Shown here one piece after another: positions 1,521 through 45,861 of a DNA stretch of 45,861 bases; positions within the stretch are counted from its first letter, which is position 1, and the number at the start of each line of letters is the position of its first letter. Source of the DNA: Rickettsiales bacterium. Its GTDB lineage: Bacteria > Pseudomonadota > Alphaproteobacteria > Rickettsiales > UBA1997. Position numbers and translations under genes: made by a program. The notes under the pieces are model-generated. The model saw nothing but the letters and a program-made list of their open reading frames with translations, was not told the DNA's origin and searched no databases. Location: assembly GCA_947425005.1 (NCBI GenBank), contig CANDYP010000002.1, forward strand, positions 1 to 45,861, in the 5' to 3' direction.

Positions 1521-3818
1521 TTATTCGTTACTAGTCGCAGCAAGTGCTGCCATATTGATGATCTCATTGATTGAGGAGCGCATCGTGACAATTTGTACAG
1601 GCTTTTCCAAGCCGTGGAGGATTGGGCCAACGACTGTGCAATTTCCAAGCTCTTCCAAAAGCTTGGTAGCAATTGAAGCTGAATGCAGGCCGGGGCAAAT
1701 CAAAATATTTGCTGGCGCAGTTAAGCGACAGAAAGGATATCTCGACATTTTATCGGCATTCAAAGCCACGTCAGCAGTCATTTCGCCGTCATATTCGAAA
1801 TTAACTTTTATGCCGTCAAGCAAGGCTACGGCGTGTTTGATTCGGCTGGATTCTGTTTTTAAAGCAGAGCCAAAATTTGAGAATGACAAGAAAGCGACGC
1901 GAGGTTGGTAGCCCAATTGACGCACTTTGTCAGCGGTTTGAATGGCAATGCTGACTAGATGTTCAGGAGAAGAAAGTTCGGAACAAGCGGTGTCGGAAAT
2001 GAAAATGGTGCGACCTTTAGAGATCACCATTGAAATGCCCAAAACGATTTTGTCTTTTTTGTTTTTGATTACTTTCCAAACATCGGTGAGGGATTGGCGG
2101 TAACCGCGAGTAAGGCCGGTAACCAGCGCATCGCCGTGTCCGCAGGCCAGCATTGAGGCGGCAAAAATGTTGCGGTCATTTTTTACCATGCGGGAGCAGT
2201 CAGAGCGTAACACGCCTTCGCGTTGCAATTTTTTGTAAAGGTAATCAGTGAATTTGTTGTTATCAGAGGACATTGAGGCGTTGTAGATCTCGATGCCTTT
2301 TGGATCGACATTGGCTTCAGCCATATTTTCCAAAATGCGCTTTTCTTTGCCGATTAGGATTGGCTTGCCGTAGCCGGAATCACGCCACATTGCAGCAGCG
2401 CGGATGATTTCCGGTTGTTCACCTTCAGCGAAAATTACTTTTTTTGGATTACGTTCGAGCTTGTCGAAAATCATGCTCATGGAGTTGACTGTAGGGTCAC
2501 GGCGAGCCTGCAATTGGCGGGTGTAAGCGTCCCAATCTGTAATTGGCTTGCGGGCGACACCGGTTGCAACCGCGGCTTTAGCGACGGCAACTGGTACGAC
2601 ATGAATCAAACGTGAATCAAAAGGAGTTGGAATAATGTATTGTGGGCCGAATTTCATGTCGCGATTGCCGTAAGCTTTCATTACTTCTTCAGGCACATGT
2701 TCGCGGGCTAAGTCAGCAAGAGCTTTGGCGGCGGCGATTTTCATTTCTTCGTTAATCGTTGAGGCGCGTACATCAAGAGCGCCGCGGAAAATGTAAGGGA
2801 AGCCCATTACGTTGTTCACTTGGTTTGGATAGTCAGAGCGGCCCGTTGCAACAATGGCATCGGAGCGGGTGGCGTGAACTTCTTCTGGCGTGATTTCCGG
2901 ATCCGGGTTGGCCATTGCGAAAATCACCGGATTTTTCGCCATTGATTTAACCATTTCTTTGGTCACTGCACCTTTGACCGACAATCCTAAAAATACGTCA
3001 GCGCCTTTCATAGCTTCGGCCAAAGTGCGGGCTTTGGTATTGGCGGCGTGGGCGGATTTCCACTGATTCATTCCTTCGGTACGGCCTTTGTAAATTGTGC
3101 CTTTAGTGTCACACAAAATGGCGTTGTCGTGCGGCAATCCCATTGCTTTCAAAAGTTCAAGGCAAGCGATGCCCGCAGCGCCGGCGCCGTTCACGATCAC
3201 TTTAAGATCTTTAAATTTTTTGCCGGAAATGTGTAAAGCGTTCAAAATACCGGCGGCAGACACGATTGCCGTGCCGTGTTGGTCGTCGTGGAAAACTGGG
3301 ATGTCCATTAATTCACGTAACTTGCTTTCAATGATGAAGCATTCTGGAGCTTTGATGTCTTCAAGGTTGATGCCGCCCCAGGTTGGCCCTAAATATTTTA
3401 CGGCGTTGATGAATTCGTCAGCGTTTTCGGTGGCGACTTCAATGTCGACCGAATCAATATCGGCGAAGCGTTTGAACAAAACTGATTTGCCTTCCATTAC
3501 TGGCTTGCCGGCTAGAGCGCCGAGATTTCCAAGGCCAAGTACAGCAGTGCCGTTTGAAATGACGGCGACGTAATTTCCTTTAGCGGTGTAGTCGTAAGCG
3601 AGGTCAGGATTTTTTTGAATTTCTAAACAAGGAACGGCAACTCCCGGAGAGTAGGCCAGAGCAAGGTCGCGCTGAGTATTAAGTGGTTTGGTTGGTTGCA
3701 TTGAAACTTTGCCGGGCTGACCCTGCATGTGAAATTGTAGCGCTTCGAGATCTTTGGAATTTTGTGTTGTGGATTTGGTTGACGAATTGTTTTTTACCGC
3801 GTCTTTTTTGCTAGCCAT
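1521..3818 (-). CDS. maeB: NADP-dependent malic enzyme (malic enzyme fused to a PTA-like domain)
   Basis: About 765 aa from MASKKD (the ORF-track start at 3860 is probably too far upstream). Conserved blocks: LALAYSPGVA, FHDDQHGTAIV, VNGAGAAG. The C-terminal phosphate-acetyltransferase-like half is typical of MaeB. Confidence 0.93.
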   Translation of the reverse strand: MASKKDAVKNNSSTKSTTQNSKDLEALQFHMQGQPGKVSMQPTKPLNTQRDLALAYSPGVAVPCLEIQKNPDLAYDYTAKGNYVAVISNGTAVLGLGNLGALAGKPVMEGKSVLFKRFADIDSVDIEVATENADEFINAVKYLGPTWGGINLEDIKAPECFIIESKLRELMDIPVFHDDQHGTAIVSAAGILNALHISGKKFKDLKVIVNGAGAAGIACLELLKAMGLPHDNAILCDTKGTIYKGRTEGMNQWKSAHAANTKARTLAEAMKGADVFLGLSVKGAVTKEMVKSMAKNPVIFAMANPDPEITPEEVHATRSDAIVATGRSDYPNQVNNVMGFPYIFRGALDVRASTINEEMKIAAAKALADLAREHVPEEVMKAYGNRDMKFGPQYIIPTPFDSRLIHVVPVAVAKAAVATGVARKPITDWDAYTRQLQARRDPTVNSMSMIFDKLERNPKKVIFAEGEQPEIIRAAAMWRDSGYGKPILIGKEKRILENMAEANVDPKGIEIYNASMSSDNNKFTDYLYKKLQREGVLRSDCSRMVKNDRNIFAASMLACGHGDALVTGLTRGYRQSLTDVWKVIKNKKDKIVLGISMVISKGRTIFISDTACSELSSPEHLVSIAIQTADKVRQLGYQPRVAFLSFSNFGSALKTESSRIKHAVALLDGIKVNFEYDGEMTADVALNADKMSRYPFCRLTAPANILICPGLHSASIATKLLEELGNCTVVGPILHGLEKPVQIVTMRSSINEIINMAALAATSNE

Positions 3819-8073: not shown

Positions 8074-8880
8074 GTGATGACTCAAGAGGTTTTATTCGAC
8101 CGTGATTTGCTGCGCCAAAACCGAGCGCGCACTGCCCAAAATTTCGCGCAGCATAATTTTCTGCATCACGAGATTGCAAATAGAATCAAAGAGAATGTTG
8201 AGATGCTGAATCGCAAGTTTGAAAGCATTTTAGAAATCGGTGCTCGTGATACTTACTTGTCTGAGCTCTTTCTTGAAGGGCCGGCTGATTCTTCTGAAGC
8301 CGCTGGTTTAGGAGATCTAACGCCACGTTTGCACAAAGGAATTTTTTACGAATTTTTTGATGACGAAGAAATTTTACCGCAAGAGCCAGAGGCGTTTGAT
8401 CTGATTTTGAGCAATCTAAATTTTCACTACATTAACCAAATTCCGCAATTTTTGCTGCAAGTAAAAAACTTGCTAAAGCCAAATGGCATCTTCATTGCCA
8501 GCTTTTTTGGCGAAGAAAATTTAAGTCAGCTAGTGCACGTAATGCATGAAACTGAAACTGAAATTTACGGCGGAATTTCGCCAAGAACTCCGCCGACGAT
8601 TGACGTCAAAACCGCGGCCGCTCTGCTGCAAAAGGCCGGTTTCCAAAATCCGATTTCTGATTTTGAAAAAATCGAAGTAAATTATTCTGATCCTTTGAAT
8701 CTGTTAAAAGATTTGAAAATGATGGGTCAGGGCAATATTTTAACCAAGCGCTCGCGCAAGTTTTTTACCAAAAAATTCCTCGGAAAAGTTTCACAAAATT
8801 ATCGTAAGACCTACGGAAATACCGATGGTGGCGTTACTGCTACTTTTGAAATTGTTACTGTAACTGGGTGGAAAGTTTGA
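8074..8880 (+). CDS. Class I SAM-dependent methyltransferase-like protein (BioC/NDUFAF5-like)
   Basis: 268 aa. LEIGARD (a degenerate motif I), FDLILSNLNFHYIN and LKPNGIFIASFFG fit the methyltransferase_11 pattern. The start could be GTG 8074 or ATG 8077. Confidence 0.6.
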   Translation: MMTQEVLFDRDLLRQNRARTAQNFAQHNFLHHEIANRIKENVEMLNRKFESILEIGARDTYLSELFLEGPADSSEAAGLGDLTPRLHKGIFYEFFDDEEILPQEPEAFDLILSNLNFHYINQIPQFLLQVKNLLKPNGIFIASFFGEENLSQLVHVMHETETEIYGGISPRTPPTIDVKTAAALLQKAGFQNPISDFEKIEVNYSDPLNLLKDLKMMGQGNILTKRSRKFFTKKFLGKVSQNYRKTYGNTDGGVTATFEIVTVTGWKV

Positions 8881-8993
8881 CTGAGTTTGTGACGAGAAAC
8901 CCCCCTACCCCCCTTGTCAGGGGGGCTTTGCACCGAACTCGATAAGCCCCCCCCTGACAAGGGGGGTAGGGGTGTTTCTCGTCACAAACTCAG
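8881..8993. repeat. Family-A GC-rich palindromic element, full copy
   Basis: ctgagtttgtgacgagaaacccccctaccccccttgtcagggggg...cccccctgacaaggggggtaggggtgtttctcgtcacaaactcag is a near-perfect 113-bp palindrome. It starts at the base after the methyltransferase stop and ends 20 nt before the miaB ATG. Confidence 0.92.
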
Positions 8994-9013
8994 TCCAAAA
9001 TTAAAATTAAAAA

Positions 9014-14237: not shown

Positions 14238-14314
14238 TGGTTGCGGGGGCTGGATTTGAACCAACGACCTTCAGGTTATGAGCCTGACAAGCTACCGGGC
14301 TGCTCTACCCCGCG
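14238..14314 (-). tRNA. Initiator tRNA-Met (tRNA-fMet, anticodon CAT)
   Basis: The reverse complement is cgcggggtagagcagcccggtagcttgtcaggctcataacctgaaggtcgttggttcaaatccagcccccgcaacca. It folds as a cloverleaf with the C1-A72 mismatch typical of bacterial initiators, is near-identical in layout to E. coli tRNA-fMet, and has an encoded CCA. Confidence 0.95.
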
Positions 14315-14382
14315 GTATGAAATGTAGCTCTGAGTTTTTGCGCTCAGAAGTTTTGATTTGTTTGCTTGCGCAAACTGGGGGT

Positions 14383-14397
14383 TGCTCTACCCCGCGG
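14383..14397 (-). pseudogene. Duplicated fragment of the tRNA-fMet 5' end (acceptor/D-arm) with part of its leader
   Basis: tgctctaccccgcgg at 14383-14397 is identical to 14301-14315. The flanking ...agctcagag resembles agctctgag upstream of the intact tRNA. Confidence 0.6.
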
Positions 14398-14473: not shown

Positions 14474-17059
14474 TTAGTTTGATGTTTTTTGGTGAAGACT
14501 TTTCCACACAAATTCCGATGTGAATGGAAGTAGCGGTGCCGCGGTTTCGCACATTGAAACTAAAACTGTGTAAAGCACATCGTAGGCGTCCTGCTTATCT
14601 TGATCAAAAATATTCTCCTCAGCTTTCTTCCAAAATCTTTGACGATTGCGGCGGATGTACCAGTTGTTCAAAGCTTCAAAAAATTGAATGAATTCTTCAC
14701 AAGCGGCGACAGTGTCGTAGTTCGTCATTGAGCCATCGATCTTAGAAACCGTTGCCTTCAGCTTGGCCAGAATGTAGCGATCCAGAATGTTGCTCAGATC
14801 TTTTTTGTACTCGATGCGATTGGCTTTTATTCCGTCAGCATTGGCGTAAAGGCAGAAGAAATTAAACGCGTTAATCAAAGGTTTGATTGACAAGCGTAAC
14901 GTGTCGCGAATCGCTTTACCGTCTTTGTCGATGCGCAATTCTTGGCCGCGCATGACGGGTTGAGAAATCATGTAGAAGCGCATGGCGTCTGATCCAAAAG
15001 TCGAAAAAATTTCCAAAGGATCGGCGTAATTTTTTAGACGCTTCGAAAGCTTTTGTGATTTTTCGTCCAAAATTGTGCCGTGGCAAATTACGTTTTTAAA
15101 CGGCGCGCGATCAAAAAGAGCGGTTGATAAAACCATTAATGTGTAGAACCAACCGCGAGTTTGGGCGACGTATTCCGTGATGAAGTCGGCGGGGAAATTT
15201 TGTTCAAAATGTTCTTTATTTTCGAAGGGATAATGCACTTGGGCGTAAGGCATTGAACCAGATTCGAACCAGCAATCTAGCACGTCGGTGACTCTACGAT
15301 AAGTCTCGCCATTTTCTTCAAAAACAATTTCGTCGATGTAAGGGCGGTGTAAATTGTCGATTTTTTTGCCGGCAACTTTTTCTAATTCCGCGACTGATCC
15401 GAAGACTTTTATTTTGCCGGACTCACTTTTCCAAACCGGTACGGGACAGCCCCAGAAGCGGTTGCGCGTGATTGACCAATCGCGTGCGCCTTCCAACCAT
15501 TTGCCGAATTGGCCGTCTTTGATGTGCGACGGAATCCAGTTGATGCCTTGGTTGAGCTCAACCATGCGGTCTTTAATGTCAGTAACTTTTACGTACCAAG
15601 AAGAGACGGCGCGGTAGATTAGTGGAGTGTCGGTGCGCCAGCAGTGCGGGTAGTTGTGGAGATATTGTTCGGTTTTTAGCCAAGCGCCGGTGCCTTTTAA
15701 ATATTTAATGATGTCGTCATTGGTGTCGAAAACTTGGCGGCCTTTTAGGGATAGAGATTGGGACGAGGAATCCTCCGTCGCGCTTTGCGCGCCATCTCCT
15801 TTTTCAAAGGAGTCTGGAATGTCGAATATCTCGGGGGTGAACTTTCCGCCTTCATCAACTGGGCAGAGAGTTGGGATTCCGTTGGCTTTACAAAGCAGTT
15901 GATCGTCTTCGCCGAATCCTGGCGCCATGTGAACGATGCCCGTTCCTTCCTCTGTGGTGACGAAGTCGCCGTGAAGGACCGTGAAGACGTTTTTATTGTT
16001 TTGAGTTTTTTCGTGATTGGCGAGGTAAGGGAAGAGGGGTTTGTACTTTAGGCCGACTAAATCAGTGCCTTTGCAGCTGGCGACTTTTTCCAACTCGCCA
16101 AAATCCTTCGAGAATTTTTCAATCAACCCTTCGGCCAAAATTAAAATTTCGCCACCTTTCTTAATTGCAGCGTAGTCAATATTTTTTCCGACGGCCAAAC
16201 CTAAATTCGAAGGAAGTGTCCAAGGGGTAGTTGTCCAAGCAACTAAGGAAATTCTAGCGGAATCGTGTTGTTTTAAAAATTCTGGCACTTCCTCTAACTC
16301 AAACTTCACCGTCACCGCCTTACTAGCCTTCTGCCTGTAAGAGTTATCCATCCTGGTCTCAAAGTTCGACAAAGGAGTTTGACAAGCCCAAGAATAAGGC
16401 ACGACGCGAAAATCTTCGTAAAGCAAACCCTTCTCATGCAGCTGTTTAAAGGCCCAAATCACCGATTCCATGTAGCTCAAATCCATCGTTTTGTAGCTGT
16501 TTTGGAAGTCGACAAAACGGCCTTGGCGCGTCACGTAATTTTCCCAATCATCCGCATATTTCATCACCGACTTGCGGCAGGCATTATTAAACTTTTCAAT
16601 CCCGTATTCCTGAATGGCGATTTGGCCGGAAATATTGCGGCCTTCCAGCGCGGTTAATTCTTTTTCAGTTTCCATTTCAACTGGCAGGCCGTGAGTATCC
16701 CAACCAAATTTGCGTTCAACTTTTTTGCCTTTCATGGTCTGGTAACGGGCGACTAAATCTTTGATGAAGCCGGTCAGCAAATGGCCGTAATGTGGTAAGC
16801 CGTTGGCAAAAGGGGGGCCGTCGTAAAAAACGAATTCTGATTTTTCTTCTTTAGGATGACGACAATTAGTGTGATTCTTCAAAGCGCATGGCTCTAATAC
16901 CGGAGACACGTTATCTTCATCCAACTCTTCAGAAAAATTTCTAATCTCAACCGATTTTTCGAAGATTTTTTCGGCTTGCCAAAAGCGCAAGATTTCTTCC
17001 TCCATTTTAGCGAAATCAAGATTCTGATTTGCCTCAGGATAATGTGATTTTTTTGTCAT
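14474..17059 (-). CDS. ileS: Isoleucyl-tRNA synthetase, eukaryote-like type 2, apparently lacking the C-terminal domain
   Basis: Start at MTKKSHYPE. Class-I signatures: PPFANGLPHYGHLLTG (HIGH) and KLSKRLKNY (KMSKS in the type-2 form). The ORF stops ~185 aa after KMSKS, at ...LPFTSEFVWKSLHQKTSN. Confidence 0.9.
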   Translation of the reverse strand: MTKKSHYPEANQNLDFAKMEEEILRFWQAEKIFEKSVEIRNFSEELDEDNVSPVLEPCALKNHTNCRHPKEEKSEFVFYDGPPFANGLPHYGHLLTGFIKDLVARYQTMKGKKVERKFGWDTHGLPVEMETEKELTALEGRNISGQIAIQEYGIEKFNNACRKSVMKYADDWENYVTRQGRFVDFQNSYKTMDLSYMESVIWAFKQLHEKGLLYEDFRVVPYSWACQTPLSNFETRMDNSYRQKASKAVTVKFELEEVPEFLKQHDSARISLVAWTTTPWTLPSNLGLAVGKNIDYAAIKKGGEILILAEGLIEKFSKDFGELEKVASCKGTDLVGLKYKPLFPYLANHEKTQNNKNVFTVLHGDFVTTEEGTGIVHMAPGFGEDDQLLCKANGIPTLCPVDEGGKFTPEIFDIPDSFEKGDGAQSATEDSSSQSLSLKGRQVFDTNDDIIKYLKGTGAWLKTEQYLHNYPHCWRTDTPLIYRAVSSWYVKVTDIKDRMVELNQGINWIPSHIKDGQFGKWLEGARDWSITRNRFWGCPVPVWKSESGKIKVFGSVAELEKVAGKKIDNLHRPYIDEIVFEENGETYRRVTDVLDCWFESGSMPYAQVHYPFENKEHFEQNFPADFITEYVAQTRGWFYTLMVLSTALFDRAPFKNVICHGTILDEKSQKLSKRLKNYADPLEIFSTFGSDAMRFYMISQPVMRGQELRIDKDGKAIRDTLRLSIKPLINAFNFFCLYANADGIKANRIEYKKDLSNILDRYILAKLKATVSKIDGSMTNYDTVAACEEFIQFFEALNNWYIRRNRQRFWKKAEENIFDQDKQDAYDVLYTVLVSMCETAAPLLPFTSEFVWKSLHQKTSN
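15766..15812. repeat. Family-B repeat fragment embedded in frame in the ileS CDS
   Basis: gaggaatcctccgtcgcgctttgcgcgccatctcctttttcaaaggag aligns with gccaaatcctccgtcgctacgcgccacctccttttgcaaaggagg (32087-32130). It encodes ...SFEKGDGAQSATEDS... in IleRS. Confidence 0.7.
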
Positions 17060-21148: not shown

Positions 21149-21312
21149 CTGATCGTAATAATTTGTCAGAAATTTTACCTTCCAAAGCTTTGCTTTACAA
21201 AAAGTTGCGGTTAGAATTTCTGGAAATTTGACACTTGATTTCGCCCTACATAATCAAGTCGCCAAACATCTCTTACAGTAAAAAAATTTCCCAAAAAACT
21301 ACGTTTTAAAAA

Positions 21313-21485
21313 CCTCCTTTGAAAAAGGAGGTGGCGCGAGAAGCGCTGGAGGATTTGCTGCAACAAGCGCGGTCTGTTTTAGCTAAACCGACTCGTTGCC
21401 AAATCATCCGCCGCTACGCACCTTCTTGCTAAAAACGTGCATTAAGCACGTTTTTTTAACGCTTAAAGCCTTTTTCAAAGGAGGC
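21313..21485. repeat. Family-B nested palindromic element (~173 bp), orientation 1
   Basis: The ends cctcctttgaaaaaggagg...cctttttcaaaggaggc are inverted repeats. Internal pairs are ggaggatttgc/gccaaatcatcc and the hairpin aaaaacgtgc-atta-gcacgttttt. Its reverse complement aligns along its whole length with 31956-32131. Confidence 0.85.
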
Positions 21486-24264: not shown

Positions 24265-24369
24265 TGCTAAAAAATAAAATATTTTTTGCGAGCCAACAGG
24301 CAGAAGGGTTTGAGCGGAGCAATTGTTGCCGCCGGCGGCAACAATTCAAAAAATATTCGTCAAAAATTC
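24265..24369. repeat. Family-C element copy 1 (conserved flanks plus variable GC hairpin)
   Basis: tgctaaaaaataaaatatttttt-gcgagccaacaggcagaagggtttgagcggagc-[aattgttgccgcc/ggcggcaacaatt]-caaaaaat... aligns with 39714-39813. Confidence 0.75.
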
Positions 24370-24407: not shown

Positions 24408-24625
24408 TGTATAACTCAAAAATATGTAAAAAATGAGTTATATACCCAACCTAATCCAAAACACCGAACTTCTGACTTCGCCTTTTTGGTAAAAATTTGC
24501 TCGGAAAACTTGGCTGTAGCACTTGCTACAGCCGGCGTTTTCTGTCGCAATTTTTCCTCAAAAATTCTCGTCATAAGTTCGGTGTTTTGAATCAGGTTGG
24601 GTATAGAAATAACTTTTATAACTCA
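24408..24625. repeat. Family-D large palindrome (~220 bp) abutting the fic start codon
   Basis: The arms tatacccaacctaatccaaaacaccgaactt (24441-24471) and aagttcggtgttttgaatcaggttgggtata (24575-24605) are inverted repeats. Outer tataactca/tgagttata motifs lie at 24410-24442 and 24617-24625. The central hairpin is ggctgtagca/tgctacagcc (24512-24533). Confidence 0.8.
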
Positions 24626-26136: not shown

Positions 26137-26156
26137 GCCTCCTTTTGCAAAGGAGG
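26137..26156. terminator. Solo family-B terminal hairpin between convergent genes
   Basis: gcctcc-ttttgcaa-aggagg is identical to the terminal hairpin of the family-B copy at 32112-32131. It abuts the uup stop codon at 26157. Confidence 0.5.
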
Positions 26157-27971
26157 TTATCCCTCAAGCTCCAGCCAGCGCTCTTCCGCAGCATCTAATT
26201 CTTTTTGGTGTTTGGCGATTTCCATTGCGATGTGGGCTAGATTTGCGGGGTTTCGGTCTTCAGTCTCGCTGAGCTCTTCACTTAATTCGCGAATTTTTAT
26301 TTCTAATTTTTCGATTTTTGCCGGAAGTTTTTCGAGCTCAAATTTGTGTTTGTAAGAAACTTTTTTTGGCTGCTCCGGCTTCTTAACTTCCACCATTTCC
26401 AGCTTAGTTCTTGCTTCTCTAGCCTGAGTATCTTGCTCAAAAATAACCTGCTGCTGATATTTTTCTTTGTACTCAATGTAGTCCGAATATCCGCCGACGT
26501 GAGTCGTAATTTCGCCGTCTCCTTCAAAAGCCAAAATCGAAGTCGCAACATTATCCAAAAAGTCGCGATCGTGCGAGACCACGATTAGTGTGCCTTCGTA
26601 CTTCTCCAAATAATCTTGCAACATGTCGAGCGAGTCCATGTCGAGGTCGTTTGTTGGCTCATCCAAAATCATAAAATTTCCGGGATTGGCCAAAGTTTTC
26701 GCCAGCAGTAAACGGTTTTGTTGCCCACCGGACAAGGTTCCGGCCAATGTCACGACATCTTTGGGATCGAATAAAAAATCCTTCATGTAGCCGCAAATGT
26801 GGCGTACTTTGCCGTTGCCGAGTTGAACGTAATCGCCGCCGGAATCGCAGAGAATTTCTTGAATTGTGGAGTGGGGTTTGATTTTGCTGCGGCCTTGATC
26901 GAAGTAGGCGATGCTTATGTCGCGGGCGGGTTTGACGGTGCCGGAATCTGGCCCTAATTCGCTGATCATCATTTTCAGCATCGTTGATTTCCCTGAACCG
27001 TTTTTGCCAATGATGCCGATTTTTTCGCCGCGTAAAATTTTTAGAGAAAATTTGTTAACAAGATTTTTTCCGCCGAAACCTTTACTAACATTGTTGAAGC
27101 TTAGAATCACCTGCGGCGCATCCTCTTCGACTTTTTGTGATTCGATTTTCATGTAGCTCTGATTGGCGCGGACTAATTTTTTTTGTGCTTCTAATTTGCC
27201 GCGTAGTTCCTGCAAATAATGCAAGCGCCCAATATTTCTCTTCCTTCTCCCAGTTACTCCCGTCTGCAACCAGCCGCTTTCCAATTTTACTTTTTTCTGC
27301 AAATTGTCGAGCTCGCGTTGCTCGTGTTCAATAATTTTTTGCGACCATTCATCGAAGTCTCTGTAGCCCTGATGATTGATTTGCAGTTTATTAGCGCGCA
27401 GCCAAAAAACTTTATTCGAAACTTTTTCTAAAAATTTGCGATCGTGCGAGATCACGATTAGCGCGCCTTGATAGGCTTGCAGATAGCCTTCCAGCCATTC
27501 AATGATGTGTAGATCTAAATGGTTAGTCGGCTCATCCAACATTAAAATGTCGGGCTCTAAAACCAAAGCGCGCGCCAAATTTACGCGACGTTTTTGACCG
27601 CCGGAAAGCGTGTGGGTGAGGGCTTCTTTGTCGAGTTGTAATTGTTCGCAAACGATGTCGACGACGTAAGATTTGTGCTCGTCAATTTTTAAGCCATCCA
27701 TGATGAAGTCAAAGACGGTGCGGTTTGCGGGCAGGTGTTCACTTTGCGAAAGATAGCCGATGACGGAGTTGGGAGTGACCCAGCGTTCGCCGCAATCAAG
27801 ATCAAATTGGCCGACAATTGCATTCATCAAGGTAGTTTTTCCGACGCCATTTTTCCCGATCAAACAAATGCGATCGCGCGGAAAAAGATTGAGGTGCAGA
27901 TTTTCGAAAAGAACTTTTTTAGCGAAAGAAATTGTGGCTTCGCGAATTGACAGGACGGGGGAGGATTTCAT
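26157..27971 (-). CDS. uup: ABC-F family ATPase (Uup-like)
   Basis: 604 aa. Two ABC cassettes (GKNGVGKTT / GKNGSGKST, LSGGQKRR / LSGGQQNR), no TM domain, and a C-terminal coiled-coil tail. Confidence 0.88.
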   Translation of the reverse strand: MKSSPVLSIREATISFAKKVLFENLHLNLFPRDRICLIGKNGVGKTTLMNAIVGQFDLDCGERWVTPNSVIGYLSQSEHLPANRTVFDFIMDGLKIDEHKSYVVDIVCEQLQLDKEALTHTLSGGQKRRVNLARALVLEPDILMLDEPTNHLDLHIIEWLEGYLQAYQGALIVISHDRKFLEKVSNKVFWLRANKLQINHQGYRDFDEWSQKIIEHEQRELDNLQKKVKLESGWLQTGVTGRRKRNIGRLHYLQELRGKLEAQKKLVRANQSYMKIESQKVEEDAPQVILSFNNVSKGFGGKNLVNKFSLKILRGEKIGIIGKNGSGKSTMLKMMISELGPDSGTVKPARDISIAYFDQGRSKIKPHSTIQEILCDSGGDYVQLGNGKVRHICGYMKDFLFDPKDVVTLAGTLSGGQQNRLLLAKTLANPGNFMILDEPTNDLDMDSLDMLQDYLEKYEGTLIVVSHDRDFLDNVATSILAFEGDGEITTHVGGYSDYIEYKEKYQQQVIFEQDTQAREARTKLEMVEVKKPEQPKKVSYKHKFELEKLPAKIEKLEIKIRELSEELSETEDRNPANLAHIAMEIAKHQKELDAAEERWLELEG

Positions 27972-28007
27972 TTATTTTTGATTTGGGGGGAAATAGGTTT
28001 TGAATTC

Positions 28008-28105
28008 GTGACCAAGAACCCCCCTACCCCCCTTGTCAGGGGGGCTTTAAACCGAGCTCGGAAAAGCCCCCCTGACAAGGGGGGTAGGGGGGTTTCTTTA
28101 GTTAC
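28008..28105. repeat. Family-A GC-rich palindromic element, full copy
   Basis: gtgaccaagaacccccctaccccccttgtcaggggggctttaaaccgagctcggaaaagcccccctgacaaggggggtaggggggtttctttagttac. It occupies most of the divergent uup/copA spacer. Confidence 0.9.
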
Positions 28106-28143
28106 AGAAGAAAGAAAATTCTAGCCCCCTCATCCAGTAAGTC

Positions 28144-29673: not shown

Positions 29674-30535
29674 AATTCAAAATCACCTCCAGCCGCATTA
29701 CCCCCTGCTGTCAGTTGAGCAACAACCCCTTCCGTCGGTTGAGCGGAGTCGAAACCCCGTGAGTTCGGCTTCATTACCGCAGCCAAACTCACGTAGTTTC
29801 AGCTCCGCTCAACCGACGGCTGGGGTTTTTTTAATTTTATTATTTCTACTCTTCGCCCCACAAAATCTTTTCGCCGCAATGAATCACGGCTCTGATCACC
29901 AGCAAATTTTTCACGCTTTTATTTTGGAGGGCGATGTCGGTCACGATCACGATGGATCAGCCAAGGCATTGAGTTTAAACGGTTGGATAGGCGGTGATCT
30001 AAATCGTCTTTGGATCAAAAACGAAACGAAGTCTTTTGGAAAATACGACACTCAAAATGAAACTCAGCTGCTTTACGGCAGAAATATTTCGCAATTTTGG
30101 GACGCACAAATTGGGGTTCGTCACGACATTAAAACCGACTTTTCTTCTCACAGCGTAGATTACTTAACCCTTGGCCTTGAAGGCTTAGCGCCTTATCTTT
30201 TTGAAACCGAGGCGCAAGTTTTTGTCAGTAATGAAGGAAATTACAGCGCGCATTTAAAGCAAGAATTTGACATTTTTCTGACGCAAAAATTAATCACTCA
30301 ACCTTATTTCGAAGCCGATTTTTTTGCGCAAAATGTACCGAAATTGAAAGTGAGTTCTGGTCTGTCAGAGGTTGAGATTGGCCTGTTGACGCGTTACGAA
30401 ATCACTCGCCGTTTTGCGCCGTATTTCGCCGTGCGCTACAATCGCAAAACTTTCGGCACGGCGGATTTAGCTAAACAATACGGCGATCGAGTTGGCGATT
30501 TTATTGCCGGGGCGGGTTTGCGGTTGAGGTTTTGA
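29663..30535 (+). CDS. copB: Copper-resistance outer-membrane protein CopB, with a repeat-derived N-terminal extension
   Basis: The ATG at 29663 overlaps the copA stop by 11 nt. The CopB core is WIGGDLNRLWIKNE...LLYGRNISQFWDAQIGVRHD...YFAVRY, ending in RF. The hydrophobic signal segment (GVFLILLFLLFAPQNLFA) lies ~55 aa from the ATG. Confidence 0.78.
   Translation: MLSKIQNHLQPHYPLLSVEQQPLPSVERSRNPVSSASLPQPNSRSFSSAQPTAGVFLILLFLLFAPQNLFAAMNHGSDHQQIFHAFILEGDVGHDHDGSAKALSLNGWIGGDLNRLWIKNETKSFGKYDTQNETQLLYGRNISQFWDAQIGVRHDIKTDFSSHSVDYLTLGLEGLAPYLFETEAQVFVSNEGNYSAHLKQEFDIFLTQKLITQPYFEADFFAQNVPKLKVSSGLSEVEIGLLTRYEITRRFAPYFAVRYNRKTFGTADLAKQYGDRVGDFIAGAGLRLRF
29726..29825. repeat. ~100-bp palindromic element inside the copB 5' coding region
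   Basis: ccccttccgtcggttgagcggag (29726-29748) is the reverse complement of ctccgctcaaccgacggctgggg (29803-29825). The inner pair is cgtgagtt/aactcacg. A T7 run follows. There is a partial tandem copy, gtcagttgagcaaca, just upstream. Confidence 0.8.
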
Positions 30536-30559
30536 AGTGCTTTTTAGATTTACGTTTTT

Positions 30560-30665
30560 AGGTTAAGACGAGAAACCCCCCTACCCCCCTTATCAGGGGG
30601 GCTTTGATCGAGTTCGGTTTAAGCCCCCCTGACAAGGGGGGTAGGGGGGTTTCTCGTCCCAACCT
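30560..30665. repeat. Family-A GC-rich palindromic element, full copy
   Basis: aggttaagacgagaaacccccctaccccccttatcaggggggctttgatcgagttcggtttaagcccccctgacaaggggggtaggggggtttctcgtcccaacct, between the copB stop and the M16 peptidase start. Confidence 0.92.
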
Positions 30666-30680
30666 CATAATCCCCCCCAA

Positions 30681-31940: not shown

Positions 31941-31955
31941 ATCTCGATCAGGAGA

Positions 31956-32131
31956 CCTCCTTTGAAAAAGGCTTCGAGCGTTAAGAAAACAGCCTAAACG
32001 GCTGTTTTTAGCGAGAAGGCGAGGAGCGCCGGAGGATTTGGCGCAACAAACGCGGTTTGTTTTAGCTTAAACCGAACTCGGTTGTGCCAAATCCTCCGTC
32101 GCTACGCGCCACCTCCTTTTGCAAAGGAGGC
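31956..32131. repeat. Family-B nested palindromic element (~176 bp), orientation 2
   Basis: cctcctttgaaaaaggctt...gccaaatcctccgtcgctacgcgccacctccttttgcaaaggaggc. It is the reverse-complement homologue of 21313-21485 and lies between the convergent M16 peptidase and OMP genes. Confidence 0.85.
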
Positions 32132-33069: not shown

Positions 33070-33212
33070 TAATCTTTGGCTTGTTGAATTATGCCGATCA
33101 ATCAGCGGCAGGGGGGTAAATTTCGGGCAGAAACTAATTGCAGCTCACAAAAGTGACAGATATTTTCTTCGCCCCTACAAAAATTGTCCCTCCCAAAATA
33201 AATTTCAAAAAA

Positions 33213-35693
33213 ATGACAGAAGTAGAAAGCCGCAAGGAATTGTTTAACGTGGAAGCAGAGCAGGCAGTGCTCGGCACAATTATTTTAAACAACGAATATT
33301 TAAATCGTGTTTCAGAATTCTTGCGTGAGGAACATTTTTACGAGCCGGCGCATCAGAGAATTTACGCGCAGATTTTGCACAATGTGGAGAAGGTCAACAT
33401 CATTGCCAATCAAGTTACGCTGAAGCAATTTTTTGAATCCGATCCTGCGATTAAAGCAATCGGCGGCGTGATTTATCTTTCGACGCTTTTGGGTTCAGCC
33501 TCGGCAATCATTGATATTGCTGACTACGGACGCTTGATTCACGACTTGGCTTTGAAGCGTTCGCTCTCAATGGTTGGAGAAGAGATCGTCAATCGCGTTT
33601 ACAAAGTGGAAGAAAAAACTTCGGCGACGGAACAGATCGAACTTGCTGAAGCCACGCTGTTCAAGCTTTCAGAGCATGGCAACGGTCGCAGTGATTTTCG
33701 CAGCATTTCCACTTCACTCAAAGAAACTCTCGACAAAACAATCATTGCCAGACAGCGCGACAGCCACATCAGCGGCGTCTCCACGGGGTTGACCGATCTA
33801 GACAAAATCCTCAGCGGCATGCAGCAATCCGACCTAATCATCCTCGCCGGACGTCCGTCAATGGGGAAGGCTCAGCCGCTTAATGCTAAGATTTTAACTA
33901 CTTCGGGCTGGAAAAAAATGGGGGAGTTAAAAATTGGTGACAAGCTAGCATCCACTGATGGCAAGGCTTCAAAGGTAAAGGGTATTTTTCCGCAAGGCAA
34001 AAAACAAATTTATCGCATTACATTTTCTGACGGTCGTTCAGCCGAATGTTGTGCCGAGCATTTGTGGAAAATTCATTGTCGTCATTTTGAAGAGGCGCGA
34101 ATTCTCTCGACGGAAAAGGTTATTTCAATGTTGGAAAAAAAGCGTTACCAGAATCGTCTCTGGATTGATACAGTGTCGGGTGATTTTGGTGACGACAAAA
34201 AATTACCACTAGATCCGTGGCTGCTTGGCGCCTTGATTGGCGACGGTACGTTATCCGGTGGCGCGGTGCGCTTCTCGACTGCCAGTGAGGAAATGTTAAA
34301 AATTCTGGCGAAAAAAATTGGCAAAGATTTCTTGATCCAACATGCCGGAAAATACGACTACCGGATTATTCAAAGTAAAGGCATTCATCACAAAGGTCTT
34401 GAGGGAGTAAGTAAAAACGGGATCAAAGAATCGCTAAAAAAATTAGGATTGTGGGATATTGTAAGTGAGCAAAAATTTATTCCTGAGCAATATTTTCAAG
34501 CTGATCACAAGTCTCGTCTCGAGCTTTTACAAGGTTTGATTGATACTGACGGTTGGGTTGAAAAATTTGGCGCCTTGCGTTTTTGCACCGTTAGCAAAAA
34601 GCTTGCTGATGATGTGGTGATGCTTGTGCGTTCGCTTGGAGCCGTTGCTTCTCTTTCTTCTAAACAAACTTCTTACACTCACAAAGGTGAAAAAAAGTCG
34701 GGTCAAACTGCTTTTGTGATTAACATTTCTCACGTAAATCAAAAAACTTTTGCTTCCCTGTCGGATAAGGTGAAGCGCATGGAGCAAGGGCGCAAGCGTC
34801 AGAATCGCCTCACCATTACCGAGATTGAAATGACTCGCAAAGCTGAAGCGCAATGCATTTCCGTAACTCATCCGGACCATCTTTATATTACTGATGATTA
34901 CGTGGTAACGCACAACACGGCACTCGCAATCAACGTGGCTGTAAATGCCTGCAAGTTTTTGAATCACAGTGGAGTTGAGGCGAAGGACAAAAAGGCGGTG
35001 GGGTTTTTTTCGCTCGAGATGTCGGCGGATCAGCTGTCAGCGCGTATTCTTTCAATGGAGAGCAGCATTAATGCGACGAAATTTCGCACGGGGCAATTGA
35101 GCGACATTGAGTGGGAAGCAATCGCCACGCGCTCTGCCGAGATTTCAAAATTGCCGTTTTTTATTGACGACACGCCGGCGCTTTCGATTGCGGCGCTTCG
35201 TACGCGTACGCGCAGAATGGTGCGTAAACACAACCTGGCGTTTTTGTTGGTGGATTATTTGCAGCTGATTCGCGGCTCTTCGACTCGCTCGAATGACGGT
35301 CGGGTGCAGGAAATTTCTGAGATCACGCAAGGTTTAAAGGCGATCGCGAAAGAGTTTAATATTCCGGTGATTGCGCTGTCGCAATTGTCGCGCGCGGTGG
35401 AGCAGAGGGACGACAAGAGGCCGCAACTTTCAGATCTGCGTGAGTCGGGTTCGATTGAGCAAGACGCCGATGTGGTGGCCTTCATCTACCGCGAGAGTTA
35501 TTATTTTGAACGCAAAAAACCGCCGGAAACTGATCGTGAGCAGTTTGAACAATGGTCGCAAAAAATGAATGAGCTGCGTCACGTTTCGGAGGTAATCATC
35601 GCCAAGCAGCGTAATGGCCCGATCGGTAAAGTTGATCTTTATTTCGATCCAGAATTCACCCGCTTCGGTAATTTGGATGTGCGGCATTATTAA
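33213..35693 (+). CDS. dnaB: Replicative DNA helicase DnaB, interrupted by an intein in the Walker A P-loop
   Basis: Start at MTEVESRKELFNVEAEQAVLG. Exteins: ...LIILAGRPSMGK | TALAINVA..., followed by SLEMS, LLVDYLQL, ALSQLSR and KQRNGP. The two exteins sum to ~477 aa, a normal DnaB size. Confidence 0.93.
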   Translation: MTEVESRKELFNVEAEQAVLGTIILNNEYLNRVSEFLREEHFYEPAHQRIYAQILHNVEKVNIIANQVTLKQFFESDPAIKAIGGVIYLSTLLGSASAIIDIADYGRLIHDLALKRSLSMVGEEIVNRVYKVEEKTSATEQIELAEATLFKLSEHGNGRSDFRSISTSLKETLDKTIIARQRDSHISGVSTGLTDLDKILSGMQQSDLIILAGRPSMGKAQPLNAKILTTSGWKKMGELKIGDKLASTDGKASKVKGIFPQGKKQIYRITFSDGRSAECCAEHLWKIHCRHFEEARILSTEKVISMLEKKRYQNRLWIDTVSGDFGDDKKLPLDPWLLGALIGDGTLSGGAVRFSTASEEMLKILAKKIGKDFLIQHAGKYDYRIIQSKGIHHKGLEGVSKNGIKESLKKLGLWDIVSEQKFIPEQYFQADHKSRLELLQGLIDTDGWVEKFGALRFCTVSKKLADDVVMLVRSLGAVASLSSKQTSYTHKGEKKSGQTAFVINISHVNQKTFASLSDKVKRMEQGRKRQNRLTITEIEMTRKAEAQCISVTHPDHLYITDDYVVTHNTALAINVAVNACKFLNHSGVEAKDKKAVGFFSLEMSADQLSARILSMESSINATKFRTGQLSDIEWEAIATRSAEISKLPFFIDDTPALSIAALRTRTRRMVRKHNLAFLLVDYLQLIRGSSTRSNDGRVQEISEITQGLKAIAKEFNIPVIALSQLSRAVEQRDDKRPQLSDLRESGSIEQDADVVAFIYRESYYFERKKPPETDREQFEQWSQKMNELRHVSEVIIAKQRNGPIGKVDLYFDPEFTRFGNLDVRHY
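33870..34916 (+). mobile_element. DnaB intein (349 aa) with LAGLIDADG homing-endonuclease domain; class-3-like (Ala1, Trp-B12, Cys-F4, Thr-G5)
   Basis: It begins AQPLNAKILT right after GRPSMGK and ends ...DDYVVTHN before Thr+1. Block B is CAEHLW (H308, W310). Block F is AQCISV (C573). Block G is VVTHN. The LAGLIDADG motifs are LLGALIGDG and LLQGLIDTDG. Confidence 0.9.
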
Positions 35694-39713: not shown

Positions 39714-39813
39714 TGCTAAAAAATAAAATATTTTTTTAGAGCCAATGGGCAAGCGGGTTTGAACGGAGCAAAACTGGACGCCGCGTCCAGTTTTCAAAAA
39801 TTAGCAGAAAATT
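39714..39813. repeat. Family-C element copy 2
   Basis: tgctaaaaaataaaatattttttt-agagccaatgggcaagcgggtttgaacggagc-[aaaactggacg-ccg-cgtccagtttt]-caaaaatt... begins at the base after the rsmI stop. Confidence 0.75.
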
Positions 39814-43900: not shown

Positions 43901-45782
43901 TGGCGATTTAGCCGGCGACGTGTTTGGTAATGGCATGTTGCTATCGCCGCACATCAAGATGGTAGCGGCTTTCAACCACATGCATATTTTCTTCGATCCA
44001 AATCCAAACCCAACAGAATCTTTCGCCGAAAGAGTGCGCATGTTTAATCTACCTCGTTCAACCTGGATGGATTACAACCAATCTTTGATTTCTAAAGGTG
44101 GTGGAATTTTCGAAAGAGCTGCCAAATCAATTAAAATTTCCTCGGAAGTAAAAGCGGTTTTGGCAATTGAAGAAGACGAGCTTGAGCCTAACGAATTGAT
44201 CAAAGCAATTCTGCAAGCTCCTGTTGATTTATTGTGGAATGGCGGCATCGGAACTTACGTAAAAGCCGCCGATGAATCTCACCAAGATGTAGGAGATCGC
44301 GCTAACGACATGCTTCGAATCAATGGTTCTGATCTCAGATGTAAAGTAATAGGCGAGGGTGGAAATCTCGGCTTCACCCAAAAAGGCCGTATTGAATACG
44401 CTTTAAAAGGTGGTCGCGTTAATACTGACGCAATGGATAACTCAGCTGGCGTAGATTGCTCGGATCATGAAGTGAATATTAAAATCGCTTTGATTCAGGC
44501 CATGCGCAGCAAAAAAATTACACTCGAAGAAAGAAATAAAGTTTTAGAAACGATGACGGACGACGTTTCTAATCTAGTTCTTGCTGACAACAGACTGCAA
44601 ACTCAAGCAATCTCCATCGCTTCTTCGCAAGGCGTATCAAACCTCGGTGACCAGGCGCAATTTTTAGACAGATTAGAAAAGACCGGATTGTTAAATCGCA
44701 AAATCGAGTTTTTACCTTCCAAAAAAGAAATCGATAAAAGACAAACTGATCGCGTGGGCATGACCAGGCCAGAGCTTTGCGTGATGTTGGCCTATTCCAA
44801 AATGGACATCTACAACGCGCTTTTAACCTCTGACTTGATCAAGGATAAATATTTCGAAAGTGAGCTACTTTCTTACTTCCCGAAATTATTGCAGAAAAAA
44901 TTCTCCGACGAAATCATTGGCCATCAACTAAGAAACGAGATCATCGCCACTCAAATTACCAACTTCGTAGTTAACAGAGCTGGAATAACTTTTGTTAATC
45001 AGCTTTGTCAAGATAGCGGCTTTGCAATTGGTGATGTGGTGAAGAGCTTCATCATCGCTTGTGACTCGTTCAGATTGCGCGAAATTTGGGAAGAGATTGA
45101 AAAATTAGACGGAAAAATTGCGCCGCACATTCAAGCGCAAATGTTTTTGAGTGCCAGCAAGTTACTGGAAAGATCAGTGCTGTGGTTGCTACGCAATCAA
45201 GCGAAAGGCAGCATTTCACCAATTATCACGCGCTTTAGAAAAATTGCCGATGAGTTGTCCTCTTTGTTGTCAGAAGTTTTAGCTCAAGCATCTCGCGAAT
45301 CTTTCGAACGTAAAATTGAAAGATATTGCCTGAATAATGTTGATCGCAAACTAGCAAATAAGATCGCCTCTCTTGATCCACTAGCATCAGTTTTTGATAT
45401 TGCAGAAATCTCTGCGGCATCAAGTTTTGATCTCAAAGTTATTGCTAAAATTTACTTTGCTGTCGGCACAAGATTTTCGTTGAAATGGTTACGCACCAAG
45501 GTTGCAAGCGCCAGTCACGATAATTATTGGCAAAAGCTTTCCGGTAAAACTATTCTTGAAGATCTTTACAGTTACCAAATGAGAATCGCGAAATGCGTTG
45601 TTGATTCCAGTTGTAACGACAAGAACCTTTGTGAAGTAGATTCCCTGAGTAGCTGGATTACCAAAGCCAGTTTCTTGGTGGAAAGATTCGACAATTTTAT
45701 TGCCGAATTAAAAACTCAGCCAAATCCCGATATGTCGGTTTTTGTTGTTGCTCTAAATCGTTTGAAACCTTTGGTGAAGTAG
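40941..45782 (+). CDS. NAD-specific glutamate dehydrogenase, large (~180 kDa) class
   Basis: 1613 aa. The central catalytic block is RGGLRWSDR...VPVGSKGGFV...VAADKGTATFSD...GGSVGYDHKKMGITA...GDLAGDVFGNGML. The size and layout match the Bac_GDH family. Confidence 0.93.
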   Translation: MEKMENLIEQLINFSHQKKYEKTFSREKFLDFAKLFYLQNQGRDFVNYPVEELHNATLLSFSFAAEKLKIFKVRIYNPTVDVDGFNSTNTFLEVISDDMPFLVDSIVGYLDRIGIRIKNIIHPIYPIVRTKNGELESIEATENSKQESVIQLHLDKITSESDIQMLQESISKIIETLVLVVGDWKKMTEVAKKSQKQIDNAKKLIKDLKEIDESKDFISWILDGNFIFLGAKEFDIKEFEKGEHHLVEVENSGLGVFQSPYADVTPEVLNSSFEEVGDSLKNPYVIEILKSRYRSRIHRISNAERIRVQKVSEDGKVIGEYRFVGLFTSSAYSHSPTSIPLIKNKIAKVVADSNFTKGSHNHKELISILESYPRDELFQTNAADLLRIATGIVAICGRSQVRFFPRKDKYSRFVSCLIFTPRDRSNSDLREKIKDYLAEIYNGEIADSFVEITESKLIRFHVIVRTNNGIPAIDSAKVEREITNMTKVWSDDLREAIAAKFENEKQIALFAKYRDAFSVSYVNRFDPKRAAIDIARVEDCLNKNSILFNLYKSSEALADEVTELKIYNPQKKLILSEIMPVLESFGFNVIQEHTYVVSPEIDDRKNSQTKVWIHYFHLNLSKGGDKFAEKTKHNFEKAVALIWQKITDVSLLNRLVVASDLDWKQIYMLRAYTKYIYQAGFKYSQSYISDALVRNRDLTKLLVELFETKFNPHLKLSMSERCKKADEISANITKSLIKVKDILDDAVIKRFFNVIKATLRTNYYQPSKEGGFKGYVSFKFDCKQVLDLPLPLPHAEIFVYSAVMEGIHLRGGRVARGGLRWSDRHEDFRTEVLGLMKAQMTKNAVIVPVGSKGGFVVKKPTANLSRDEILQEGISCYQTFLRGLLDITDNVIDGKIDHPQNCIMHDDSDPYLVVAADKGTATFSDIANGISAEYNFWLGDAFASGGSVGYDHKKMGITAKGAWISVKRHFAEMGIDTQTQDFTCVGIGDLAGDVFGNGMLLSPHIKMVAAFNHMHIFFDPNPNPTESFAERVRMFNLPRSTWMDYNQSLISKGGGIFERAAKSIKISSEVKAVLAIEEDELEPNELIKAILQAPVDLLWNGGIGTYVKAADESHQDVGDRANDMLRINGSDLRCKVIGEGGNLGFTQKGRIEYALKGGRVNTDAMDNSAGVDCSDHEVNIKIALIQAMRSKKITLEERNKVLETMTDDVSNLVLADNRLQTQAISIASSQGVSNLGDQAQFLDRLEKTGLLNRKIEFLPSKKEIDKRQTDRVGMTRPELCVMLAYSKMDIYNALLTSDLIKDKYFESELLSYFPKLLQKKFSDEIIGHQLRNEIIATQITNFVVNRAGITFVNQLCQDSGFAIGDVVKSFIIACDSFRLREIWEEIEKLDGKIAPHIQAQMFLSASKLLERSVLWLLRNQAKGSISPIITRFRKIADELSSLLSEVLAQASRESFERKIERYCLNNVDRKLANKIASLDPLASVFDIAEISAASSFDLKVIAKIYFAVGTRFSLKWLRTKVASASHDNYWQKLSGKTILEDLYSYQMRIAKCVVDSSCNDKNLCEVDSLSSWITKASFLVERFDNFIAELKTQPNPDMSVFVVALNRLKPLVK

Positions 45783-45793
45783 TAAGAGTCTTG

Positions 45794-45861
45794 GACGAGA
45801 AACCCCCCTACCCCCCTTGTCAGGGGGGCTTTGACCGAGTTCGGTTTAAAGCCCCCCTGAC
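45794..45861. repeat. Family-A GC-rich palindromic element, left arm and centre (cut by window edge)
   Basis: gacgagaaacccccctaccccccttgtcaggggggctttgaccgagttcggtttaaagcccccctgac starts 12 nt after the GDH stop. Confidence 0.88.

Follow-up and report, generated by a model that had tools for sequence, protein, structure and literature searches.

How does a presumably essential aminoacyl-tRNA synthetase (aaRS) gene come to contain a piece of repetitive intergenic DNA and stay open? The question is raised by ileS, the isoleucyl-tRNA synthetase (IleRS) gene on contig CANDYP010000002.1 of the Rickettsiales bacterium assembly GCA_947425005.1, of which we analyzed one stretch of 45,861 nucleotides (hereafter, the window). 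A sequence-only reading of the window had claimed that a fragment of a palindromic repeat, family B, is inserted in frame in ileS and behaves like the Rickettsia palindromic elements (RPEs). Our answer, in which we have good confidence, is that a mobile palindromic repeat did enter ileS, at a position and in a frame tolerated by the enzyme, and that it is now a translated, decaying passenger of the RPE-like kind.

A family-B unit in the reading frame of ileS

The features of the ileS copy are as follows.

14474-17059, minus strand: ileS, intact gene for an IleRS of 861 amino acids (aa), short form without the C-terminal domain
15758-15814, minus strand: in-frame insert of 57 nt, codons D416 to Q434, 19 residues DSFEKGDGAQSATEDSSSQ
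15768-15812, plus strand, in reverse orientation relative to ileS transcription: family-B unit (arm plus terminal hairpin), found by nhmmer, Smith-Waterman alignment, and pattern match
15796-15812: terminal hairpin CTCCTTT-TTC-AAAGGAG, 7 bp, by direct reading against the consensus
15779-15791: inner hairpin CGCGC-TTT-GCGCG

The 48-nt string at 15765 to 15812 (plus strand) aligns with 32087 to 32130 (plus strand) and with the reverse complement of 21313 to 21360, with 37 to 38 identities of about 40. The match thus starts one base before the 15766 that had been noted. The aligned blocks are AATCCTCC, CGC, CGCGCCA, and the entire terminal hairpin CTCCTTTTTCAAAGGAG, and the only gap in the alignments of ileS with the intergenic copies is an indel of 2 to 4 nt in the inner loop. 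The Smith-Waterman scores of 26.5 and 28.0 (z = 16 to 17) compare with a mean of 9.4 to 9.9, a standard deviation of about 1.05, and a maximum of 15 in 1,000 dinucleotide shuffles of the gene, so that the proposed match to the repeat, terminal hairpin included, is significant in a formal alignment. A repeat search of the window returned a 33-nt, 91% complementary pair (15780 to 15812 and 21314 to 21346), and the window contains four occurrences of the hairpin motif CTCCTTTNNCAAAGGAG, with zero expected. Using nhmmer, a unit profile of 55 copies (53 from loci of a genome scan plus the two intergenic copies of the window) matches 15768 to 15812 at an E value of 2e-11, which is inflated because the collecting pattern had itself been drawn up in part from the ileS copy.

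On the minus strand the insert lies in the context ...FDIPDSFEKGDGAQSATEDSSSQSLSLKGRQVF... and is read as FDIP-DSFEKGDGAQSATEDSSSQ-SLSLKGRQVF, with FDIPDSFEK and GDGAQSATEDSSSQSLSLK as the boundary peptides; the alignment permits a shift by one codon, to S417 to S435. The 861-aa open reading frame (ORF) is continuous across it, as had been proposed. The insert is absent, and the flanks are joined as FD(L/I)PxLS(L/I)KG, in 77 of the 120 closest homologues (74 to 100% identical). In Thermus thermophilus IleRS (1ILE) the aligned flanking blocks abut at F354|K355, and alignment to solved structures shows a gap at this position in the human, yeast, and Priestia enzymes. The two blocks are therefore indeed closer together in most other IleRSs, as the sequence-only reading had stated. 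The F354|K355 junction is inside the CP1 editing domain (construct 1WK8), about 30 residues past the GTGIVH...GEDD editing motifs.

Could the segment instead be an ancestral, clade-specific loop whose similarity to the repeat is coincidental or ileS derived, or an artefact of metagenome assembly? Several orthologues have SFEKG...ED at the site, and repeats are a classic cause of chimeric assemblies. However, the z values against shuffled sequences are high, dozens of intergenic copies exist across several genomes, and the segment is missing from all solved IleRSs as well as from the 77 orthologues. The alleles carrying the peptide (P0010, P0014, P0048, P0065, P0077, P0093, and P0112) are scattered among empty ones, and at least two of the carrier genomes, MEMO01 and REEB439, have family B elsewhere, so the presence of the peptide in orthologues does not refute an insertion. 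A contig-specific artefact is unlikely because a second assembly, GCA_973627075.1 (locus L045), has an identical insert with the frame intact on both sides; its ileS differs by only 2 nt. We regard both possibilities as largely refuted and give them next to no weight, and the empty site was probably the ancestral state.

The insert peptide is strongly hydrophilic and acidic (grand average of hydropathy, -1.45; net charge, -4). A first AlphaFold model, made with 37 sequences, had a mean confidence score (pLDDT) of 47.8 and was unusable. In a second model, made with 119 sequences, the pLDDT falls below 50 exactly at residues 416 to 434 (block mean of 26), where no secondary structure is predicted. 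This is the sole low-confidence stretch in the CP1 region, the core of which has pLDDT values of 80 to 90 in a model that averages 59 overall and is usable only for CP1 and its surroundings. Across orthologues, the number of extra residues at the site ranges from 0 to 153. Given the structure model, the peptide composition, and this length variation, the loop is probably exposed and permissive, which agrees with the surface loop that had been expected, and it is probably functionally neutral for the enzyme.

The course of events would then be as follows. By insertion or by transfer, a family-B copy reached the stretch of ileS coding for a CP1 surface loop, in a frame free of stop codons. Since the insert is divisible by three in length and extra residues are tolerated in this loop, the gene would have stayed functional, and the repeat would now be translated as a 19-residue, acidic, Ser/Gly-rich, disordered loop. 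Most likely this does nothing for the enzyme and is tolerated selfish DNA in decay.

Alternatively, the acidic, flexible CP1 segment could have been co-opted to modulate editing, tRNA(Ile) handling, or partner binding and be kept by selection. The insert is intact in two assemblies and lies in the editing domain close behind its motifs, and the frame SFEKGxGAxSAxED is common to the copies in ileS and in a leuS gene described below. However, the closest relatives (84 to 90% identical) mostly lack the insert, the site varies in sequence as well as in length, and the segment is predicted to be disordered. The shared frame is more simply explained as an open, hydrophilic frame that survived selection. 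We consider co-option improbable.

The gene that carries the insert is intact. Its product matches TIGR00392 at an E value of 1e-258 (profile positions 3 to 792 of 861). A truncation was suspected because the ORF ends about 230 residues before that of the usual type-2 IleRS and is followed by a tRNA-Met gene and a fragment of a tRNA 5' end. Reading ileS as a truncated pseudogene was ruled out, as more than 100 relatives, 74 to 90% identical, keep the short architecture, which is a feature of the whole clade and no truncation. The lengths of 119 homologues range from 808 to 1,217 aa and are mostly 820 to 900 aa; their public labels are "MAG: Rickettsiales bacterium," "Alphaproteobacteria bacterium," and "Proteobacteria bacterium," MAG being a metagenome-assembled genome. 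The gene order glyS-hom-(ferritin)-ileS is kept in eight genomes, and this conserved synteny supports a housekeeping role for ileS.

Some further observations concern the same gene. A tRNA-Met(CAT) gene (14238 to 14314, minus strand) is directly downstream of ileS, and an 18-nt copy of its 5' end (CGCGGGGTAGAGCAACCC) lies at about 14379 to 14396 (minus strand), about 80 nt upstream of the tRNA gene. The region 3' of ileS looks like a rearrangement or integration point, since the genes there vary among related genomes. Residues 41 to 75 or so (16850 to 16990, minus strand) form a clade-specific N-terminal insertion ahead of the HIGH motif, in which C58, C66, and H68 are invariant and H63 nearly so, and which may be a small zinc knuckle. 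Together with the absent C-terminal domain, it gives an unusual, short IleRS architecture.

The repeat family and its other in-frame copies

In the window, family B is represented by three more features.

21312-21485: complete intergenic element of family B, with glyS on one side and the pyruvate phosphate dikinase (PPDK) gene on the other; nhmmer hits; DNA fold of -46.5 kcal/mol, z = -6.8
31955-32130: the other complete intergenic element of family B, inverted with respect to the first; its neighbors are the convergent M16 peptidase gene and a 308-aa ORF; nhmmer hits; DNA fold of -57.1 kcal/mol, z = -8.9
26138-26157: solitary terminal hairpin CCTCCTTTTGCAAAGGAGGT between two convergent genes; nhmmer E value of 4.5e-5

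The two full elements are composite palindromes of about 175 nt with the layout [terminal hairpin + arm]-spacer-[arm + terminal hairpin]. The family-B unit has about 45 nt, the consensus AAATCCTCCGGCGCTTCGCGCCACCTCCTTTTTCAAAGGAGG, and the end GGAGGATTTA(A), and its usual form is an inverted doublet of 120 to 180 nt. In each of the two intergenic elements a terminator-like hairpin module interrupts one unit, at about 21427 to 21468 (right unit) and at 31973 to 32011. The modules read AAAAACGTGC-ATTAA-GCACGTTTTT and AAAACAGCC-TAAAC-GGCTGTTTT and are either nested insertions or functional add-ons.

Judged from its sequence, the ileS copy is a degenerate single unit, made up of the terminal hairpin, the arm, and the first 12 nt or so of the spacer. 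What had been called an inserted repeat fragment is thus a homologous repeat and an insertion relative to most orthologues, refined to one degenerate unit of the usual inverted doublet. In its terminal hairpin, the outermost C:G pair of the consensus is replaced by A/A, yielding two Asp codons. The differences between alleles in the inner stem are paired (for example, G:C in the window and A:T in allele P0014), and both hairpins can still fold (RNA, -21 kcal/mol; z = -2.1). At the 5' junction the window copy retains the empty site's Pro codon, and on the 3' side about 12 nt (CCTCGTCC..., CCTCGTC...) match the spacer that follows the unit in loci L027 and L034. The ileS copy is most aptly seen as the left portion of a longer copy, from which it was probably derived by deletion. 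The SSQS extension common to the window and allele P0077 was considered as proof of orthologous insertions and was rejected, because CCTCGTC... also follows intergenic units and other units within ORFs. A metagenome scan for the 45-nt subtype seen in ileS, with its 7-bp inner stem, gave three matches with this narrow pattern, all of them known ileS alleles.

We scanned one genome per species with a degenerate unit pattern and found 60 copies of family B in 44 loci, nearly all in related MAGs. The hosts are mostly uncultured Alphaproteobacteria or "Rickettsiales" MAGs from lakes, reservoirs, and groundwater, namely, RIFCSPLOWO2_01_FULL_40_26 (most copies), LJ-5-9m_bin-1355, Loc080925, REEB439, RE-14apr17-14, and M_DeepCast, and a few copies are found in bins with other labels. 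In the richest genome, copies are arrayed in tandem, units of one subtype alternating with oppositely oriented units of another, and the linkers between them are conserved (for example, L012, 5100 to 5580, and L028, 1170 to 1560). No match to the full element was found in PLSDB plasmids by blastn, and an Rfam search identified the tRNA-Met only. Our literature search found no paper on repeats of the host lineage.

Most copies are intergenic, and only about 5 of the 60 are in real ORFs. The leuS gene of REEB439 (L017, 1 to 3030) has two in-frame insertions, a full doublet just ahead of the TTRPDT editing motif and, in the anticodon-binding domain, a single unit that reads SFEKGVGARSATEDL. An ABC-transporter ATPase gene has an in-frame 150-nt doublet between conserved motifs, and the ileS of MEMO01 (P0077) has an in-frame copy as well. 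The copies in real ORFs are read in the frame SFEKGxGA..., which is open and hydrophilic. Because other genes hold in-frame copies, too, the RPE-like behavior proposed for the ileS copy is a property of the family and no one-off. A profile of the translated repeat, which makes a short, low-complexity, and uninformative query, gave a single match, of 38 aa, among 5.8 billion proteins. Besides the two family-B insertions, the REEB439 LeuRS has a large extra CP1 segment.

Alleles of the ileS site and the DUF559 genes

We scored the state of the insert site among the 120 closest IleRS homologues.

77 alleles: empty site
6 alleles: a pair of B units, [arm-hairpin]-linker-[hairpin-arm]; the start is FDL|NHPS in every case
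3 alleles: one B unit (the window, its near-identical twin in the second assembly, and P0014)
3 alleles: a different palindromic family (...GVSTLPQGEG...)
6 alleles: a complete DUF559/Vsr-like endonuclease ORF
Remaining alleles: other short segments, some of them scar-like

The six alleles with a DUF559 ORF are P0069, P0081, P0089, P0095, P0097, and P0116 (DNA in L055, about 2700 to 3250). Here the endonuclease ORF is in frame at the same CP1 site, giving continuous IleRS proteins of 977 to 1,217 aa, and is bounded by 55-nt inverted repeats with the hairpin CCCTCTCCCTTGAGGGGAGAGGG in each. P0025 shares INLE...NLT with these alleles and looks like a scar. P0014 equals P0010 minus exactly 60 nt (GATTTAAA|AGCCTCC), so one-unit alleles can come from two-unit alleles by deletion. 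A quick neighbor-joining tree of 791 conserved columns intersperses the occupied states with empty alleles and places the window allele as the sister of a large clade whose members are all empty. The ileS site has been hit repeatedly, by at least three other element types; therefore, the insert may be inherited or transferred with an allele, with no fresh transposition in the genome of the window.

Repeat-like peptides occur in orthologues at no fewer than four further variable IleRS sites, which are not invaded in the window (alignment columns 280 to 400, 440 to 480, 500 to 600, and 630 to 650). The peptides are MLSLSKHD...FDKLRVT, NHPPLEGGSNNFL, GVSTLPQGEG, and CHSREGGNP or CHP(I/V)AGRDL. 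As far as the alignment tells, ileS has been invaded at many positions within the clade. P0069 and P0117 also contain GNAT domains.

The DUF559 ORFs are not confined to ileS. Using the ileS DUF559 domain in tblastn, we found three ORFs of 117 to 120 aa (PF04480, E values of 1e-27 to 1e-31) in the loci selected by the repeat, and all three have B units on both sides within tens of bases. To remove the bias of this selection, we fetched close homologues (66 to 72% identical) by protein alone, and again three of three had B units on both sides. The free-standing DUF559 genes flanked in this way, six of six loci overall, are the following.

L027, 6196-7060
L041, 1560-2070
L014, 5000-5600
L056, 1028-1686
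L057, 1093-1800
L058, 92-680

The arrangement of the units around the ORF varies between loci; in L056, the DUF559 stop codon is in the hairpin loop. A distant cyanobacterial DUF559 homologue adjoins a CCCCCCTTATTAAGGGGGGCTAGGGGGG unit that resembles the other repeat family of the window. DUF559 has been classed in the Vsr group of PD-(D/E)XK nucleases, alongside the homing endonuclease I-Bth0305I (PMC3424549). The flanking of all six genes hints at a mobilizing or associated nuclease, which may move the repeats, use them as a target, or merely share their insertion preferences. Family B may be moved by the embedded DUF559 (Vsr-like PD-(D/E)XK) genes or travel together with them. Many DUF559 homologues are on contigs below 2 kb, which would be expected of repeated or mobile DNA. 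No paper treating DUF559 as a mobile-element gene was found in the literature search.

These data bear on a second route by which the repeat could have reached the window. The ileS gene may have received it by homing or homologous recombination with an element-bearing ileS allele of a related lineage, at a site targeted by DUF559, followed by the loss of most of the element. The occupied site is found in scattered branches of the IleRS tree, the 5' junction FDL|NHPS is identical in the six two-unit alleles, and six other alleles have at the same site a DUF559 ORF with its 55-nt terminal inverted repeats, an element of which P0025 would carry the scar. The two-unit form matches the [arm-hairpin]-DUF559-[hairpin-arm] layout of L056 minus the ORF, the metagenome scan returned the 45-nt subtype from ileS alone, and DUF559 belongs to the nuclease group of a proven homing endonuclease. 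However, the DUF559 elements seen inside ileS bear a different repeat type and none of them has family-B ends, and the 5' junction of the window differs, its Pro codon being kept and that of the two-unit alleles lost. The ileS copy and the window's own intergenic copy (32090) both read CCGTC, whereas most other genomes read CCGGC, which hints at a local origin or gene conversion. The nuclease activity of DUF559 and its target are putative only. Spread at the allele level is therefore a possible route but, to us, a doubtful one.

Against our preferred reading of a mobile repeat that became a decaying passenger stand several further points. No target-site duplication was found at the five junctions examined, and those in ileS show no clean insertion scar either and thus give no sign of classical cut-and-paste transposition; the window contains no transposase and no DUF559 gene. 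The B units could be the target or the neighborhood of the nuclease gene rather than its ends. The subtype that the metagenome scan found only in ileS is compatible with a single old insertion that spread by descent or recombination, and the foldable hairpins or the paired changes in the inner stem could reflect structural constraint. The tree is a quick one, and the AlphaFold model serves for CP1 and its surroundings only.

A bolder and rather unlikely idea is that the abundant, functionally unassigned DUF559 genes are the nucleases of widespread, hairpin-ended palindromic elements, with family B and the C6/G6 family A of the window as ORF-less members, which repeatedly home without splicing into the same loop sites of essential genes (ileS CP1 and leuS) and leave translated scars. 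If true, a homing-type element could reside in an essential gene by a third means, in addition to introns and inteins.

The window has other repeats and elements. A second abundant palindromic family (AACCCCCCTACCCCCCTTGTCAGGGGGGCTTT...) occurs in five intergenic regions (1 to 55, 8867 to 8998, 27998 to 28112, 30555 to 30670, and 45780 to 45861), and Cyanobacterium aponinum FACHB-4101 has a unit much like it immediately upstream of a DUF559 gene (L059, 1100 to 1145). There is a near-perfect 110-nt palindrome after a copA-like gene (29721 to 29830), a palindrome with 81-nt arms upstream of a Fic gene (24429 to 24617), and a 70-nt direct repeat at two gene ends (24265 to 24334 and 39714 to 39783). 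The DnaB helicase (33138 to 35693, plus strand, 851 aa) has a LAGLIDADG_3 domain at residues 461 to 539, between the DnaB N- and C-terminal domains, and presumably contains an intein.

Known palindromic and homing elements

The closest parallel in behavior is that of RPE-1 to RPE-10 (Ogata et al. 2000, 2002; summarized in PMC10969869). In both systems, short palindromic repeats are present in many copies, between genes and in frame within unrelated housekeeping genes, where they add hydrophilic peptides at fold-compatible positions, do not disrupt the host ORF, and decay. Unlike RPEs, family B is modular, with 45-nt units in alternating arrays, and its hosts are uncultured and apparently nonreduced alphaproteobacteria, which have a G+C content of about 43% and encode LexA, PPDK, and copper resistance. 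The share of sampled copies in real ORFs is also lower than the nearly one-half known for some RPE families. By analogy, family B would work like RPEs, and we liken the two by behavior and claim no membership.

Family B also has features of the repetitive extragenic palindromic (REP), BIME, and REPIN sequences, being an imperfect palindrome of about 40 nt that forms alternating tandem clusters with conserved linkers (L012 and L028) and inverted doublets without target-site duplication. REP, BIME, and REPIN sequences are mobilized by RAYTs, which are IS200/IS605-like Y1 transposases. By tblastn, no RAYT match was found in the window or in 55 loci (about 0.4 Mb), a weak test made with an Escherichia coli RayT query. 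REP palindromes bear at one end a conserved tetranucleotide, GTAG or CGTC (PMC3733652). The family-B consensus is without GTAG, and CGTC is found in a few variant copies only. Unlike REPs, moreover, family B is not strictly extragenic, and its embedded gene encodes DUF559 and no Y1 transposase.

In-frame fusions are also made by MITEs (miniature transposable elements with inverted repeats), including ERIC, Correia/NEMIS, and cyanobacterial MITEs (PMC10969869). Like these, family B is a small, noncoding element with terminal inverted repeats, a stable hairpin, and an occasional in-frame insertion, and its ends may be common to a longer, ORF-bearing form, although the arrangement of the units around the DUF559 ORF is not constant. 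Unlike MITEs, it shows no target-site duplication at the ileS, leuS, and ABC ATPase junctions, where the flanking TTTAA is the end of the unit. Its putative ORF-bearing partner encodes a Vsr-like endonuclease and no DDE transposase, and DUF559 is no demonstrated transposase.

The recurrent occupation of one conserved site in an essential gene, with a patchy phylogeny, is a likeness to homing endonuclease elements such as I-Bth0305I (PDB 3R3P), the nuclease fold group of which includes DUF559. The coexistence of ORF-bearing (6 DUF559), ORF-less (9 B-unit and 3 other-repeat), and empty (77) alleles resembles a homing cycle, and this is a feature of the site and not of the window copy. In contrast to homing introns and inteins, there is no splicing element and no intein or intron feature, and judging from the continuous ORF the insert would be retained in mRNA and protein.

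Palindromic repeats that have colonized housekeeping genes in frame are on record, at high frequency, mainly for the genus Rickettsia, and a 2024 review called similar repeat-driven protein evolution elsewhere "conceivable" and unexplored (PMC10969869). Family B is a second in-frame repeat system, which looks unrelated in sequence, in environmental alphaproteobacteria. Across relatives, ileS shows the ORF-bearing element, two units, one unit, a scar, and the empty site side by side; therefore, the dynamics of insertion and decay and the tolerance of the IleRS editing domain, from no extra residues to the full 153, are directly testable. Such inserts inflate the apparent diversity of aaRSs and break metagenome assemblies. 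Finally, the tight association of DUF559 with the repeats gives a concrete hypothesis on the role of this large protein family, whose function is unknown.

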